DNA from: a virus
Taxonomy: Duplodnaviria > Caudoviricetes
IMG/VR virus record: IMGVR_UViG_3300020576_002141
Location: 11,384-75,383 of that record
Reading direction: 5' to 3' (one strand)
DNA length: 64,000 nt
How positions within the stretch are numbered: position 1 is the stretch's first letter; every line of letters begins with the position of its first letter. Below the pieces are notes generated by a model, which did no database searches, was not told the origin of the DNA, and saw only the letters and a program-made list of their open reading frames with translations. This document shows positions 4,374 through 48,258 of the stretch, piece by piece. Made by a program: the position numbers and the translations under genes.

Positions 4374-6113
4374 ATGTCCAAAAAGAAGGGTTCCAAGGCG
4401 GATGCCTTAGTTGGCGATAATATGATGCCAGTTGAACCTGTACTACAGAAAGCCAGCTTTCCAGGTGTAATCGTTTCTGCTAAAAATGAAGGACAGAAGG
4501 AAGCCATACGAACAATAGAAACACATGAAGTTTCTATTCTATCAGGCGTTCCGGGAACAGGCAAAGCACAACCTCTCGATTCTACAATTTATACCCCAAA
4601 CGGTAAAATGAGGTTTGGTGATATCAGGGTAGGAGACGATGTTTGTACCCCCGATGGAAAAACTGCTAAAGTAATAGGTATATACCCACAAGGAAAAAAA
4701 GAAGTATATAAAATTACATTTAAGGACGGCAGTACAGTAGAATGTTGCCTGGAACACCTGTGGAAAATATACTTTAAAAACAACAAACATAAATCCCGGA
4801 TAGTAGATACCAAGTATATTTTAGAAAATTTTAATAGAAGAACAATATCTATAGAGGCTACCAGACCTGTAGATTTTGCCGAAAGTTCAGTATTAATTCC
4901 CCCTTATTTGTTGGGTTTACTATTAGGAGATGGTGGATTTTCTAACTCTAACATAACACTCACAACAGCCGACGAATCTATTGTTGTTGGTGTTCGATCT
5001 ATCTTGTCTGAAAAATATCAGTTAAAAATCAAGAAAAATTCGGAAATAGATTATAGGATAGTAAAAACAGAAAAAACTTCTAGTAAAAACGAATATAAAG
5101 ATGCGCTACGCATATATGGTCTTTGGGGATTAAAATCCAACGAAAAACACATACCTCATCCATATCTTTATGGTTCAATAGATCAACGCAAAGATTTATT
5201 GCGGGGATTGATGGATAGTGATGGCTGGGTGGAGAAGAACGGGCAGGTTTGCTATTGTTCTACATCAAAGCAACTTATAGAAGACTTTACAGAATTAATA
5301 AACTCGCTTGGTGGAAGAGTATACCTGCATTCTTCTATACCCTCATACAGATATAAGGGCGAAAAGAAATATGGAAAATTGTGCTATACCGCATCCATTG
5401 TAATAGATAACCCCGAAGATTTATTTACTCTCGAAAGGGAAAAAATCCGAATAAAGCCAAGGAGAAAGTACTTTTCTAAAAATATTATTAGGAGTATAGA
5501 GAAAATTGGTGAAAAAGAATGCCAATGTATTATGATTGATTCGCCGGATCATCTATATTTAACAAACCATTTCATACCTACACACAACACCCACCTCGCA
5601 GTAGGTTTGGCTCTAAAAGATCTCTTTGCTCGAAAATATGAAAGAGTCATCTTGACTCGTCCGTATGTGGAAGCAGGAGAGCACCTTGGCTTTTTGCCGG
5701 GTGGTTATAATAATAAAATCGCACCCTTTATGTATCCCATCGTAGAGATTATGTCTCAATATATAAAAAGCAAAGATTTGATTACGAAACTTATAGATAA
5801 CGGAAATATCTCTGTTGTTCCTTTGGCTTATATGAGAGGGTGTACATTCAAGAACTCTTTTGTAGTAGCAGACGAATGTCAGAATACAACTGTATCTCAA
5901 ATGCGAATGCTTCTTACTAGAATAGGTGACAACTCAAAGTTAGTCATCACCGGTGATGTGGAACAATCAGATATTGGATATAAAAACGGTCTTATGGATG
6001 CCATAGACCGTCTTCAAGATATCAAGGAGATTGGATTTCACAACATGGGAGAAGAATGTTGCGTAAGATCTGGCATAGTAGCCAAGATCGAAATGAAGTA
6101 TAGAAATAAGTAA
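4374..6113 (+). CDS. phoH: PhoH-family ATPase interrupted by an intein
   Basis: KNEGQKEAI, GVPGTGK|THLA (Walker A split by the intein), TRPYVEAGEHLGFLPG, LAYMRGCTF, VADECQN, RMLLTRIG, TGDVEQSD. Confidence 0.93.
   Translation: MSKKKGSKADALVGDNMMPVEPVLQKASFPGVIVSAKNEGQKEAIRTIETHEVSILSGVPGTGKAQPLDSTIYTPNGKMRFGDIRVGDDVCTPDGKTAKVIGIYPQGKKEVYKITFKDGSTVECCLEHLWKIYFKNNKHKSRIVDTKYILENFNRRTISIEATRPVDFAESSVLIPPYLLGLLLGDGGFSNSNITLTTADESIVVGVRSILSEKYQLKIKKNSEIDYRIVKTEKTSSKNEYKDALRIYGLWGLKSNEKHIPHPYLYGSIDQRKDLLRGLMDSDGWVEKNGQVCYCSTSKQLIEDFTELINSLGGRVYLHSSIPSYRYKGEKKYGKLCYTASIVIDNPEDLFTLEREKIRIKPRRKYFSKNIIRSIEKIGEKECQCIMIDSPDHLYLTNHFIPTHNTHLAVGLALKDLFARKYERVILTRPYVEAGEHLGFLPGGYNNKIAPFMYPIVEIMSQYIKSKDLITKLIDNGNISVVPLAYMRGCTFKNSFVVADECQNTTVSQMRMLLTRIGDNSKLVITGDVEQSDIGYKNGLMDAIDRLQDIKEIGFHNMGEECCVRSGIVAKIEMKYRNK
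4566..5588 (+). mobile_element. Class 3-type intein (341 aa) with LAGLIDADG endonuclease, inserted in the PhoH P-loop
   Basis: Starts AQPLD; block B ECCLEHLW; LAGLIDADG motifs YLLGLLLGDG and LLRGLMDSDG; block F ECQCIMID; ends FIPTHN followed by Thr+1. Confidence 0.9.
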
Positions 6114-7726: not shown

Positions 7727-8919
7727 CAATATACTCCAAGAATGATCGTATCTTCGTTTATTCTTCCAGAACATTCATAGGAAGATGTTTTTATAGAGTC
7801 CAGAGAACTTTTAACAGCTCTGATACCCTTGTCTTTGATCTCTTTCATAAACTCTGCGGGTTTTCTTATTTTCTTTGTGTAGGATTTAGAGATAGATGAA
7901 TCAAAGTCGATAATAGTGCTTCCCTTGATGGATAGCCCGTGCGAGCTGTTGGCTTCTATAATAGTAGCCTTTGCTGACTGGGTGTTATACAAAAGTACTT
8001 TTTCTGCTCCTATTATCTTAGTAGGAGAAAGAGACTTAATCCCAAGAGTCTTATCTTCTTGTTGATACTTGACTTTCTTGCACATATCGACAGGAGACTT
8101 CTTTCTCTTCTTACGTATGGTTATAGTCTTATTGGCTTCACCATACTGCTTACATGAAAGAATAATCTCATTGAGAAAATCTTTGTACTCCTTGATTCCT
8201 GCTTTAGAATAGCAGGAATAGGCATTTTCTTTCATGTCTTCCTCGAACAAAGATAAAACACCAGTAAACCAAGATGCGATTTTGTCACATTGGTTTGGCT
8301 TTACGTTCTTTGTATGTAAGATATCTTTTACAGTTATAGTTTTTTCTTGCTTCTTTTGAACCTTTTTGCTAGCTATCTCTTCTTTCTTTTGTTCAAATAT
8401 AGCTATACTGGATATACCAGAACTGACTGTTTCTAGCTTGGTGTCAGCCATTTTCTCTAGATCACCTATGACTCCATATATTTTCTCGTTCGTTCTTTCT
8501 CTTATGGAGATAACAGGTTCGGTAGTTTCTACTGCTTCCTTTGGTTTACTCTTTTCTTTGTTTATTAAATGAGTTAAGCACTTATTCAAAGAATCTATAT
8601 CTTCTTTTCTAACAGGTGCTCCCAGTGAAAGCATTCGGCACATCATGCCTACATTAAATCCATACAAACCAGGAATATCCCCATATTTAATGGAGATATC
8701 CATATTTTGAATAGATTGAATATCTTCCTTTGAAAACTTATTGGACTTCATGTATTCTATAGTCCACTTTTTACATTCAGAATCACTGGACATATAGTTA
8801 TACCAAGAGAATGCTCTTGCTAAAGCACAATCTCTATCTACATCGGTTTCGAATTTTTCAGTCCAAGTGGGTTCGGTGCCATAATGGACTACTTCAGTAT
8901 TTATTGCTTTTTTAGCCAT
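7726..8919 (-). CDS. Conserved T4-like phage hypothetical protein
   Basis: 397-aa ORF; C-terminal SPTKIIGAEKVLLYNTQ...IKGSTIIDFD...IRKP...GRINEDTIIL resembles a conserved myophage protein. Confidence 0.7.
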   Translation of the reverse strand: MAKKAINTEVVHYGTEPTWTEKFETDVDRDCALARAFSWYNYMSSDSECKKWTIEYMKSNKFSKEDIQSIQNMDISIKYGDIPGLYGFNVGMMCRMLSLGAPVRKEDIDSLNKCLTHLINKEKSKPKEAVETTEPVISIRERTNEKIYGVIGDLEKMADTKLETVSSGISSIAIFEQKKEEIASKKVQKKQEKTITVKDILHTKNVKPNQCDKIASWFTGVLSLFEEDMKENAYSCYSKAGIKEYKDFLNEIILSCKQYGEANKTITIRKKRKKSPVDMCKKVKYQQEDKTLGIKSLSPTKIIGAEKVLLYNTQSAKATIIEANSSHGLSIKGSTIIDFDSSISKSYTKKIRKPAEFMKEIKDKGIRAVKSSLDSIKTSSYECSGRINEDTIILGVY

Positions 8920-8952
8920 ATTTCTCGATCTTTACTAAAACTATACATATAT

Positions 8953-8980
8953 AGTATATGTTCAAATAATGTAAAGTCAA
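8953..8980 (-). promoter_or_regulatory. Sigma70-type promoter (leftward)
   Basis: Minus strand TTGACT-N16-TATACT, about 35 nt upstream of the 8919 start. Confidence 0.7.
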
Positions 8981-9003
8981 GTGAAAAAGAACTATAGTTT
9001 CAG

Positions 9004-9031
9004 TTGACTTAAGATTTCTGTTGACTATACT
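9004..9031 (+). promoter_or_regulatory. Sigma70-type promoter (rightward) driving the tRNA cluster
   Basis: TTGACT-N16-TATACT, followed by hairpin GTGTTTGAT-AA-ATCGAACAC (9041-9060) and the first tRNA. Confidence 0.7.
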
Positions 9032-9069
9032 ACTATGTTCGTGTTTGATAAATCGAACACAGAATGCTT

Positions 9070-9138
9070 TGCGAGAAGTCTTGGTAGACAAGTGGCCTCA
9101 TAAGCCACCCAAAGAAGGTTCAACTCCTTCTCTCGCTA
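9070..9138 (+). tRNA. tRNA with CAU anticodon (Met or Ile2), atypical short D arm
   Basis: Acceptor (T)GCGAGA/TCTCGC(T); D arm GTCT-TGGT-AGAC; anticodon arm GTGGC-CTCATAA-GCCAC; T arm GAAGG-TTCAACT-CCTTC. Confidence 0.75.
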
Positions 9139-9151
9139 TTCGATATTTACA

Positions 9152-9220
9152 TGGTATAGCATAAACAATGCATGTTCTCTTATGAAGAATACGATGTGGG
9201 TGTAACTCCCGACTACCACC
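9152..9220 (+). tRNA. Degenerate tRNA-like element with UAU (Ile) anticodon
   Basis: D arm GCAT-AAACA-ATGC; anticodon arm GTTCT-CTTATGA-AGAAT; bulged T arm with TGTAACT loop; only 5-bp acceptor TGGTA/TACCA. Confidence 0.5.
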
Positions 9221-9244
9221 GGACTCAGTCCGGTATAAGTATCT

Positions 9245-9277
9245 GAGTTTATAGTCAGGCCAACGCCGTATAAACTT
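9245..9277 (+). ncRNA. Repeated structured RNA hairpin, copy 1
   Basis: GAGTTTATA-GTCAGGCCAACGCCG-TATAAACTT; 9-bp basal stem. Confidence 0.6.
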
Positions 9278-9292
9278 ATTATAAAATACTAT

Positions 9293-9363
9293 GCGCTCAT
9301 CGTCTAAGGGCAAGGCATACCCCACGGAGGGGTAAAATATAGGTTCGAATCCTGTTGGGCGTA
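9293..9363 (+). tRNA. tRNA with non-canonical anticodon loop (CGG in 7-nt register, A33; ACG-like Arg if shifted)
   Basis: Acceptor GCGCTCA/TGGGCGT; D arm GTC...GGC; anticodon arm TACCC-CACGGAG-GGGTA; T arm ATAGG-TTCGAAT-CCTGT. Confidence 0.7.
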
Positions 9364-9379
9364 GCAACAATAGTATAAA

Positions 9380-9412
9380 GAAGTTATAGTCAGGCCAACG
9401 CCGTGTAGCTTC
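9380..9412 (+). ncRNA. Repeated structured RNA hairpin, copy 2
   Basis: GAAGTTATA-GTCAGGCCAACGCCG-TGTAGCTTC; 9-bp basal stem; 21-nt core identical to copy 1. Confidence 0.6.
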
Positions 9413-9418
9413 ATTATT

Positions 9419-9450
9419 GCCCCCATAGTTTAGTTGGCTAGAACATCCGT
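9419..9450 (+). pseudogene. tRNA 5' half (positions ~1-31) with no 3' half
   Basis: GCCCCCA-TA-GTTT-AGTTGGCT-AGAAC-A-TCCGT gives an acceptor 5' strand, a D arm and an anticodon 5' strand; no anticodon loop, T arm or acceptor 3' strand follows. Confidence 0.6.
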
Positions 9451-9473
9451 AAAACTGAACAACGTATTTATAC

Positions 9474-9509
9474 CCTAAATAGTATATATCGAGTTCGATT
9501 ATTTAGGAG
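9474..9509 (+). promoter_or_regulatory. Late-promoter-like CTAAATA inside a hairpin that sequesters the SD of the downstream gene
   Basis: CCTAAATAG (9474-9482) pairs with TTATTTAGG (9499-9507), which overlaps SD TAGGAG (9504-9509). Confidence 0.6.
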
Positions 9510-9518
9510 CGTATAAAG

Positions 9519-10202
9519 ATGAAGTATCAGGAAATGATTGAAGCCAAAAAGCTTCGAAAAGAAGAAGGTATGTCTATCACCGAAATAGCAAAAAGACTCA
9601 ATGTTGCTAAAAGCAGCGTTAGTCTTTGGGTGCGAGATGTTCCTTTAACACCAAAACAGCAACGAGCCTTATTAGATAAAAATCCCATTCACAATAGACA
9701 ATTAAATGGATCAAGAGTCAGAAAAGAAAATGCGAAAAAATGCAGAGTTACGTATCAGGAGGAGGGTAAAGAAAAGGCTAAAGAAAAATCTTGGTTACAT
9801 ATGACGGGCTGTATGCTTTATTGGGCGGAAGGTTCAAAGGGGCGAAATGGTGTAGGATTTTGCAATACCGATGTACAAATGATGAAGCTTTTTATGAGAT
9901 TTCTTCGAGAAGAAATGAAGATAAATGAAGATAAATTTTGTTTTAGTATTAATATGTACGAAAACAATGGAATAACAGTCGAAAATGTCGAAAATTTCTG
10001 GTTAGATCAACTATCTCTTGATAAAAAATGCTTACGAAAATCTAGAGTTAATAAGTTACCGAAATCCAGCAAAGGATATAAAAAGAATAAGCATATTTAT
10101 GGAGTTGGAAACATAACAGTTAATGATACACACTTAGTTCAACATATTTATGGTGCTATACAAGAGTATGGTGGTTTCATAAATGAAATTTGGATAAAAT
10201 AA
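9519..10202 (+). CDS. HTH + LAGLIDADG-like putative homing endonuclease
   Basis: N-terminal HTH (GMSITEIAKRLNVAKSSVSLWV), then GCMLYWAEGSK...FCNTDVQMMKLFMRFL, a degenerate single LAGLIDADG-like motif; located inside the tRNA cluster. Confidence 0.7.
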   Translation: MKYQEMIEAKKLRKEEGMSITEIAKRLNVAKSSVSLWVRDVPLTPKQQRALLDKNPIHNRQLNGSRVRKENAKKCRVTYQEEGKEKAKEKSWLHMTGCMLYWAEGSKGRNGVGFCNTDVQMMKLFMRFLREEMKINEDKFCFSINMYENNGITVENVENFWLDQLSLDKKCLRKSRVNKLPKSSKGYKKNKHIYGVGNITVNDTHLVQHIYGAIQEYGGFINEIWIK

Positions 10203-10207
10203 TTTTC

Positions 10208-10282
10208 GGGGCAGAATACAAAGCGGATCGAGTAACATGACTTTCAATCATGTCATAATGGGTTCAAGTCCCATCTGCCTCA
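10208..10282 (+). tRNA. tRNA-Glu(UUC)
   Basis: Acceptor GGGGCAG/CTGCCTC; anticodon arm CATGA-CTTTCAA-TCATG; T arm ATGGG-TTCAAGT-CCCAT; A at position 8 and 3-bp D stem are atypical. Confidence 0.85.
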
Positions 10283-10310
10283 TTTACAGTTTGAATAGGG
10301 AAAAAATATT

Positions 10311-10499
10311 ATGAAAAATACTTCTTATCGTACCCGTGTTAGTATCCGTAGCAGTCAAACTCCGAGATTCTCGGGTGAGCTTATTCGTATGGAATATGAT
10401 CACCGCTTTGGTGAGCAATATTTAATCAAAACGTATCATCCAGATTGGGGCGAGGAATATTTCTGGATGAGAGAGAACGAAGTTAGATTTCAACGCTAA
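10311..10499 (+). CDS. Hypothetical protein
   Basis: 62-aa ORF between tRNAs, AGGG upstream. Confidence 0.6.
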   Translation: MKNTSYRTRVSIRSSQTPRFSGELIRMEYDHRFGEQYLIKTYHPDWGEEYFWMRENEVRFQR

Positions 10500-10505
10500 C
10501 TTATT

Positions 10506-10577
10506 GGCTTCATAGTTTAAATGGTAAAACATCTGTCTGTCTAACAGAAATCAGGAGTTCAATTCTCCTTGGAGCCG
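10506..10577 (+). tRNA. tRNA-Asp(GUC)
   Basis: Acceptor GGCTTCA/TGGAGCC; D arm GTTT...AAAC; anticodon arm TCTGT-CTGTCTA-ACAGA; T arm AGGAG-TTCAATT-CTCCT. Confidence 0.92.
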
Positions 10578-10592
10578 TTTGAGGAAAATATT

Positions 10593-10982
10593 ATGACGAA
10601 CTATATTACAAAAGATTTGAGTCCAAGAATAAGAAGATGTAATCTAGAACACGAAGAGAAATGGGCCGAATGGCTCAACAAGATACCATCCTTTTCTTTC
10701 TCGAATAAAGTATTCGTTACTATTATACCACCCTTTGGTGGTGCTCTTGCTCGCTTCCGAGTTACATTAAAATCAGACCAGAGCGTATCTGTATCTGTTT
10801 ATTTGGATGTAAATGAATCTCTTGGATATTACGATGGAAAGCCATATTGGGAGATTTACCCAGACATCACCAATGATGCTCAAAGATTTGATTTCAAAGA
10901 CACAGATGGAGTAATAAAATCTGTGATGAAATCTCTAAATAAGCAACATAGGGAAAACACAAAAGGAAAGTGTTCGCCGTAA
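10593..10982 (+). CDS. Hypothetical protein
   Basis: Start moved to ATG 10593 (GAGG SD), since the track start lies within tRNA-Asp. Confidence 0.7.
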   Translation: MTNYITKDLSPRIRRCNLEHEEKWAEWLNKIPSFSFSNKVFVTIIPPFGGALARFRVTLKSDQSVSVSVYLDVNESLGYYDGKPYWEIYPDITNDAQRFDFKDTDGVIKSVMKSLNKQHRENTKGKCSP

Positions 10983-47931: not shown

Positions 47932-48258
47932 ATGGATCTAAGAGAAACACCACATTTGAATGTTCACTTTCAAGAAGTTCTTCGTCCAATGGCAGAAAAA
48001 CTAAGAGCCATTTTATACGAAGGTCAAGCCAATCTAAACACTCATATTGAACTTCTTACGGCTTTAAGTATGTTCCCCGATCAGAATGCTTTGGTAATCG
48101 ATGGGCGAGCCGCCGAAGGCGTCAGACCAATGACGGTAGAACAACTGAAAGTAGCCTGCCAGTTTCTGGTGGACATGCTTCAGTGGAGCCAAACCGTAGA
48201 AAACGAACCAAGAGGAACGACAGCACTGAGAATGACCGTGCGTCCATTCAGAGTATAA
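47932..48258 (+). CDS. Hypothetical protein
   Basis: 108 aa, AAGGAG SD. Confidence 0.7.
   Translation: MDLRETPHLNVHFQEVLRPMAEKLRAILYEGQANLNTHIELLTALSMFPDQNALVIDGRAAEGVRPMTVEQLKVACQFLVDMLQWSQTVENEPRGTTALRMTVRPFRV

Follow-up and report, generated by a model that had tools for sequence, protein, structure and literature searches.

We identified a family of 33-nt hairpins that constitutes a real, uncatalogued, and very rare RNA motif, with copies on four contigs that represent three phage lineages. The eight copies come from independent assemblies, and every one of them lies inside a tRNA cluster and on the tRNA strand. The RNA motif is new, and as a structured spacer element in a tRNA operon it is of a familiar kind. 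We suggest, tentatively and with rather less than even confidence, that it is a cis-acting, sequence-recognized processing or punctuation signal in a polycistronic tRNA transcript.

The window, the whole 64,000-nt stretch of DNA analyzed here, is part of a 75-kb IMG/VR virus record that is estimated to be 42% complete; related contigs are metagenomic, and one of them is labeled aquatic. Since the neighboring genes include T4 RNase H, an intein-bearing PhoH, gp32, gp59, and a MotA-like activator, the source is, on its gene content, an uncultured T4-like phage. The PhoH-like ATPase (4374-6113, + strand) is split by an intein with a LAGLIDADG-type endonuclease domain; in the relatives L206 and L207, the ATPase has an uninterrupted 240-aa form. 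The tRNA cluster runs, on the + strand, from a promoter-like site through tRNA-Met, a diverged tRNA-Ile-like stretch with a GC hairpin, hairpin copy 1 (hp1), an atypical tRNA, hairpin copy 2 (hp2), a 5' remnant of tRNA-Glu, a 227-aa ORF, tRNA-Glu, and a 62-aa ORF to tRNA-Asp. Its features are as follows.

9004..9031, + strand: sigma-70-like promoter TTGACT-16-TATACT upstream of tRNA-Met (consensus scan only)
9069..9139, + strand: tRNA-Met(CAU), the first gene of the cluster (ARAGORN/Rfam)
9146..9233, + strand: diverged tRNA-Ile(UAU)-like stretch, then a GC hairpin, CCGGAC-UCA-GUCCGG, upstream of hp1
9245..9277, + strand: hp1, with a 9-bp stem, internal loop GUCA/G, stem GGC/GCC, and loop CAAC (sequence, fold, covariance models)
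9278..9282, + strand: AUUAU tail directly 3' of hp1 (alignment)
9286..9292, + strand: leader strand AUACUAU, partner of the trailer at 9370-9376, which lengthens the acceptor stem of the atypical tRNA (MFE fold; duplex versus shuffles)
9293..9363, + strand: atypical tRNA-like gene ("tRNAx") between the hairpins (Rfam tRNA, 41.2 bits; ARAGORN, 9292-9365)
9370..9376, + strand: trailer strand AUAGUAU, partner of the leader at 9286-9292 (MFE fold; duplex versus shuffles)
9380..9412, + strand: hp2, with the same core as hp1 and an outer stem that is different yet fully paired (sequence, fold, covariance models)
9413..9417, + strand: AUUAU tail directly 3' of hp2 (alignment)
9419..9448, + strand: tRNA-Glu 5' remnant (homology to contig L211 ends at 9448)
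9519-10202, + strand cluster: 227-aa ORF with an HTH domain
10208-10282, + strand cluster: second, complete tRNA-Glu

The predicted promoter at 9004-9031 is the likely origin of the transcript that would carry the hairpins. Between tRNA genes, positions 10311-10499 (+ strand) encode a protein of about 60 aa with the motif SSQT...G...R.E.D..G.Q...GEE.FWMRE.E; this small protein is present in every relative examined, with or without hairpins, and has no Pfam or PHROG family.

The first-pass annotation had placed two 33-nt hairpins with an identical apex at 9245-9277 and 9380-9412, and both the coordinates and the fold are as it described. In each copy, a 9-bp stem leads through a 4x1 internal loop into a 3-bp stem closed by a tetraloop. 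The folding energies are -8.3 kcal/mol for hp1 and -9.9 kcal/mol for hp2 (z about -3), and both copies form locally in the MFE fold of 9240-9420. The 21-nt core, TTATAGTCAGGCCAACGCCGT, is identical in the two. Its 15-mer has exactly two occurrences, whether counted over the window or over the full 75-kb record; one further site in the window, at 48121, lies within 3 mismatches of it (3 mismatches), giving three matches at this tolerance, a number attained by none of 100 shuffled windows, which average 0.3 matches at ≤3 mismatches. The hairpins are spaced 135 nt apart and enclose a tRNA. The 3' end of hp1 falls 14 to 15 nt upstream of the next tRNA (start at 9292 or 9293), that of hp2 falls 6 nt upstream of the tRNA-Glu 5' remnant (9419), and the distance from hairpin end to next tRNA is 6 to 16 nt across copies. 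The earlier description, in which each copy sits after one tRNA and 6 to 15 nt before the next tRNA or tRNA half, stands for the downstream spacing but not for the upstream neighbor of hp1, which is the diverged tRNA-Ile-like stretch and is not called as a tRNA by ARAGORN or Rfam. Alignment of this stretch (9146-9233) to the tRNA-Ile(UAU) of the close relative L211, where an intact tRNA-Ile occupies the equivalent place, ends at 9164. The stretch retains a CUUAUGA anticodon-like loop, and it shares with the L211 tRNA-Ile an unusual UG at the opening of the T-loop.

A covariance model built from hp1 and hp2 was run on relatives reached via the neighboring 397-aa protein (hp1 covariance-model scores R1/R2, 58/56 bits), and six additional copies were found in three other assemblies of related T4-like phages; the tRNA-associated homologues that the first-pass annotation had proposed to look for thus exist. 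Three copies are in L211, a JGI contig whose 397-aa protein is 100% identical to that of the window and whose tRNA cluster is different; one is in L210, a relative at 76% identity in the same protein; and two diverged copies are in L216 (=L221), at 43% protein identity. Records carry two to three copies, all in the tRNA cluster, with none elsewhere in the 75 kb of the window's record and two in the 14-kb L221 record. The 59% lineage (L206 to L209) has a similar tRNA cluster with short spacers and no hairpin copy, and the element must therefore be dispensable for tRNA expression as such. In L207, the 48-nt Tyr-Ala spacer (1984-2031, - strand) could form an unrelated hairpin of similar layout, with the parts, judged by eye, GAUAA, U, AGG, loop, CCU, CAC, and UUAUC. 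No copy was present in eighty loci around RNase H relatives, in L212 to L215 or L217 to L220, or, except in L221, in loci reached via the small cluster protein; the short contigs L268 and L269 begin too near the small ORF to cover the spacers.

Searches with the core sequence alone gave a similar picture of rarity. The 15-mer has more than 119 matches in viral contigs, none of which, beyond the window's own record, has a flanking stem of >6 bp; these matches, mostly in GC-rich DNA, are read as chance. The 19-mer and a degenerate 21-mer have zero matches in viral contigs, the 19-mer has two in metagenome contigs, both of which read as coding sequence, and a degenerate 19-mer has 41 in genome contigs, against a rough chance estimate of about 35, none with a stem of >6 bp. 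Comparison by blastn of the cluster, the hairpin, and the atypical tRNA with GenBank phages returned nothing relevant and no core match, and no description of the motif was found in the literature searched.

Evidence for selection on the structure comes from the six copies that align without gaps, in which 72 of 72 stem cells are paired and four pairs have changed on both sides. Their covariation score was reached by none of 500 shuffles, and alignments slid out of register, used as controls, gave 31 to 49% pairing. When all eight copies are considered, 93 of 93 cells are paired, 8 of 12 pairs have changed on both sides, and the inner stem also covaries (GGC/GCC to AGC/GCU), in an alignment that was fitted to the covariance model and is in consequence biased towards the structure. 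The covariation first claimed from two copies is thus borne out by six more, and basal-stem pairing is retained in the homologues. Ten of the 72 stem cells in the gapless copies are G-U or U-G, pairs that the complementary strand would present as A-C mismatches, and the opposite strand of hp2 has no more folding stability than shuffled sequence (z = -0.48); together, the G-U cells and the strand asymmetry of hp2 imply that the selected structure is RNA, or a single strand, of + polarity.

The constraint on the apex is of a different nature. In the basal 9-bp stem, pairing alone is constrained, and in the apex the sequence is. The motif takes the form of a 9-bp stem, (GU)CA, RGC, YAAC, GCY, R, and a closing stem strand, and the apical consensus CA-RGC-YAAC-GCY-R is nearly invariant among spacers that are otherwise unalignable, with C12, A13, G15, C16, A18, A19, C20, G21, and C22 invariant in all eight copies. 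The L210 core is identical at 20 to 21 of 21 nt, though its spacers cannot be aligned with those of the window and the neighboring protein is 76% identical. A structure-only stem that presents a sequence-specific apex is how protein-binding hairpins are usually built. At its base the stem is rich in AU, and directly 3' of it an AUU is invariant in the six gapless copies; the tails among these copies read AUUAU, AUUUG, or AUUCU.

Other readings of these sequences were tried and rejected. TATAAAT-like words in the 3' arm, which would suggest a late promoter, are not kept among copies. In the window, the loop sequence GCCAAC could pair with GUUGGC in the D-loop of tRNA-Glu, but L211 does not preserve this. 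For one L211 unit, the first, the MFE structure is a long-range one in which the two flanking copies pair together and no local hairpins form, but compensation occurs within copies and the window copies fold locally. A mini-element inserted into older palindromes would have left the older stem with only 4 bp.

The hairpin also belongs to none of the following known families and classes, in agreement with the first-pass annotation, which did not recognize it as a known family. A gathering-threshold scan of the window with Rfam 15 matched tRNAs only, and a scan of 8900-10700 at E ≤ 10 returned nothing over 9245-9277 or 9380-9412, and likewise at the hairpins in L211 and L216. There is no terminator-like site at the hairpins and no U-tract after the stem, as an intrinsic terminator would have. 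Antitermination, another of the first-pass proposals, finds no support here. A CRISPR repeat or solitary repeat unit of the RNA anti-CRISPR type was rejected on the basis of differing outer stems, a spacing of 135 nt that contains a tRNA, and the absence of a match to a CRISPR-DR family of Rfam at the hairpins. A REP/BIME element was rejected because the 75 kb hold just two copies, neither of them outside the tRNA cluster, and because the stems covary instead of staying fixed. Self-cleavage, which the first-pass annotation had proposed to test, is unlikely for a simple, single 33-nt hairpin with no ribozyme family match at E ≤ 10. An integron attC site, which has conserved RYYYAAC and GTTRRRY boxes paired at the base of the hairpin and a variable center, does not fit: GGCYAAC here is in the loop without a GTTRRRY partner, the conserved part of the hairpin is apical and its base variable, and no integrase occurs among the neighboring proteins scanned. 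The GUCAGG of the hairpin is reminiscent of SRP RNA domain IV, a likeness set aside because the hairpin lacks the 3' side of the SRP loop and matches no SRP family.

The genes that the hairpins enclose are themselves unusual. The window tRNAx has a good cloverleaf body, an anticodon loop, CACGGAG, with A at position 33, and no encoded CCA. Homologues in L211 (5419-5489, - strand) and L210 (1-58, - strand) have the same body and other anticodon loops, so that the three loops read CACGGAG, CAAGUAG, and GCGCGGA; U33 is missing in all, and in two of the three a C32-G38 pair could shrink the loop to 5 nt. On these features tRNAx is unlikely to be an ordinary decoder. A second bracketed tRNA-like gene in L211 (5553-5623, - strand) has an 8-nt anticodon loop (ARAGORN "gtct") and acceptor mismatches, and its leader and trailer form a 12-bp helix (-11.0 kcal/mol) that none of 300 shuffles equaled; the other leader-trailer pairing value among hairpin-flanked units is -5.3 kcal/mol, with a shuffle fraction of 0.02. 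Such pairing is confined to the hairpin-flanked atypical tRNAs, canonical tRNAs being no different from shuffles, and in MFE folds the helix prolongs the acceptor stem, so that this clamp and both flanking hairpins meet at one junction. In L216, both hairpins lie 3' of the last tRNA, with no tRNA downstream, and enclose a 52-nt stretch that has a short similarity to the D-arm of tRNAx and may be a remnant of it; that the hairpins are intact around this stretch indicates that they are independent of an intact enclosed tRNA. In L210, the spacer that separates tRNA-Met from the hairpin (101-155, - strand) forms a strong joint fold with the hairpin (-30.5 kcal/mol; z = -4.3); this spacer may represent a further structured element or a tRNA that has decayed.

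The window and L211 differ in tRNA content between flanking proteins that are 100% identical: one unit lies between two hairpins in the window, and two lie between three hairpins in L211. Homology between them falls into blocks at window positions 8910-9164, 9249-9448, and 10344-10690. The left edge of the middle block (9249) coincides with the start of the hairpin core, and the other junction falls within tRNA-Glu. In L211, the tRNA-Glu (5290-5363, - strand) is single and intact and lies 6 nt after the matching hairpin; at this place the window has the 5' 30 nt of an L211-type gene, the 227-aa HTH protein, and then a divergent complete tRNA-Glu that begins 5 nt past the stop of the 227-aa ORF. 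The protein matches HTH families only and contains an LYWAEG motif, and the arrangement fits the insertion of a mobile gene. The divergent type of tRNA-Glu also occurs on contigs L268 and L269.

The reading that we tentatively prefer, in which the hairpin is a processing or punctuation signal acting in cis, would operate as follows. The hairpins would be carried on a + strand polycistronic transcript of the tRNA cluster, where a protein would read the bases of the bulge and loop. The reader would most simply be an endoribonuclease, or a factor guiding one; an RNase E-type enzyme, which needs a structured element beside a single-stranded AU-rich site, serves as an example. A cut beside the hairpin would separate the tRNA units, and a stable stem would protect the fragment ends as a cap. 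Because CCA is not encoded in the tRNA genes, endonucleolytic cuts in the spacers are needed. RNase E has the core motif RN|WUU, its targets being AU-rich single-stranded sites that have U at +2 (PMC5222698), and to act on tRNA precursors it relies on structured elements nearby (PMC9841416). The AUU tail 3' of the stem in the six gapless copies matches the W-U-U half of this motif; five of the six have a pyrimidine, not a purine, at -2, and positions -1 and -2 would be in the stem. Against the proposal, the L216 hairpins persist without an intact tRNA to process, L206 to L209 manage without the hairpin, and the MFE fold of the first L211 unit, which pairs the flanking copies with each other, is unfavorable to a local hairpin. 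No partner protein was identified, and the conserved small cluster protein occurs in hairpin-less relatives too.

Alternatively, the hairpin may act in trans, an explanation that we regard as unlikely. A spacer-hairpin fragment of about 40 to 60 nt would be freed by RNase P and 3' processing and would persist as a stable small RNA whose task is to bind a specific protein or to titrate it, the target being perhaps an RNA-binding defense or processing protein of the host, with the several copies raising the dose. An invariant apex with a bulged CA and a YAAC loop, carried by a stem constrained in structure alone, is the usual architecture of a protein-binding hairpin, the L216 copies are kept without an intact tRNA between or after them, and the tRNA region of T4 is known to encode the non-tRNA species RNA C and RNA D, of unknown role (PMC3014915). 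Against this stand the lack of a known decoy target, of a CRISPR-DR or other Rfam match at the hairpins at E up to 10, and of an antisense target at ≤3 mismatches in the window; in the cellular genomes scanned, moreover, the core is never inside a stem. Very unlikely, in our judgment, is a more elaborate scheme in which a dedicated RNA-binding nuclease, of the phage or of the host, would recognize the hairpin as its handle and excise the clamped tRNA-like RNAs between copies, these being decoys or sponges against host tRNA-targeting defenses and not decoders, and the units being exchangeable cassettes. The features cited for it are the missing U33 and the diversity among close relatives of the anticodon loops, CACGGAG, CAAGUAG, GCGCGGA, and the 8-nt loop.

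We consider it quite unlikely that the primary role is at the level of DNA, the repeated 21- to 25-bp core being a recombination site bounding exchangeable tRNA cassettes in a PeSL-like manner. The differing tRNA content of the window and L211 between identical proteins, and the start of the middle homology block at the hairpin core, would be expected of such a site, but a DNA homology site requires neither a stem nor compensatory changes, and G-U pairs and strand asymmetry indicate RNA. Comparison of arms showed, furthermore, that hp1 is no simple chimera of L211 copies, and the second junction, within tRNA-Glu, is away from a hairpin, leaving a single junction in support; exchange at any repeat is to be expected as a by-product. 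The earlier suggestion of a mobility signal for tRNA cassettes is thus left with one circumstantial point, a mosaic junction of near-identical phages at a hairpin. Highly improbable is a functionless or selfish small palindromic repeat, REP- or MITE-like, spread locally with duplicated tRNA units: the copies are direct repeats that flank units, their distribution is very narrow, and close relatives are without the element, but there are two to three copies per record in the tRNA cluster only, with none elsewhere in 75 kb, there is no direct target-site duplication (the flanks are inverted complements of each other), and neutral decay is insufficient to account for a core and stem compensation that are kept where the neighboring protein is 43 to 76% identical. 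Scarcely credible, finally, is a promoter plus stem-loop on the opposite strand, PeSL-like in minus orientation. The conserved ATTAT, read on that strand, would supply a -10 box, and an antisense transcript would have the hairpin at its 5' end. In a consensus scan, the minus-strand second hexamers TATAAT (9283-9278) and AATAAT (9418-9413) abut hp1 and hp2, but the -35 parts are inside tRNA genes in an AT-rich region where 6.9 sites were expected and 13 found, two of six copies are without the A2/T6 that is key to a -10 box, the minus-strand fold of hp2 is at the level of chance, and no gene lies downstream on the minus strand.

As a putative processing signal, the hairpin has a close parallel in the spacers of bacterial polycistronic tRNAs that carry RNase E and RNase P signals (PMC9841416, PMC5222698, PMC3985628). 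Like these, it is inter-tRNA and on the tRNA strand, with a stable structure beside a short single-stranded AU-rich stretch that has U at the second and third positions. In the known cases, however, the tRNA itself or a terminator supplies the structure and no particular sequence is required, whereas the phage has a dedicated, repeated hairpin with a nearly invariant bulge and loop, at which cleavage is only proposed here. PeSL motifs, which mediate module shuffling in T4-like phages, combine a sigma-70 or Mot promoter with a terminator-like stem whose sequence is fixed, and they lie beside variable ORFs (PMC4122927). The hairpins resemble them in being short conserved stem-loop repeats in a plastic T4-like region, with one of the two window-L211 junctions at a copy, at the hairpin core, and the other in tRNA-Glu, but they are without a same-strand promoter or U-tract, their stems covary, and the genes they flank are tRNA-like. 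No + strand promoter-like site lies beside either hairpin in the window, where the matches are weak minus-strand consensus ones only.

In design, the hairpin is similar to the coat-protein operators of MS2 and PP7: the lower stem is free in sequence, the bulge contains a conserved A, the upper stem is short, and A residues are conserved in the loop. In sequence, there is no relation. Those operators are RNA hairpins with a bulged base and a short loop that are bound by protein. T4-like phages are not known to have a protein of the MS2/PP7 coat-operator type. RNA C and RNA D of T4 are single, longer genes of roughly 120 to 140 nt. These small stable RNAs, also known as species 1 and 2, are likewise non-tRNA RNAs in a T4-type tRNA cluster (PMC3014915), and they are set apart by description from 33-nt repeats that flank tRNA-like units.

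The non-tRNA RNAs of phage tRNA clusters are poorly understood, and the role of T4 RNAs C and D is still not known (PMC3014915). The hairpin described here is a clean case, with strong covariation and a fixed position by clamped, atypical tRNA-like genes; its value is limited by its rarity, at eight copies in three lineages of uncultured phages. Should an RNase or an RNA-binding protein recognize it, the hairpin would reveal the way in which such phages cut and organize their tRNA transcripts and might help to explain the purpose of their noncanonical tRNA-like genes.
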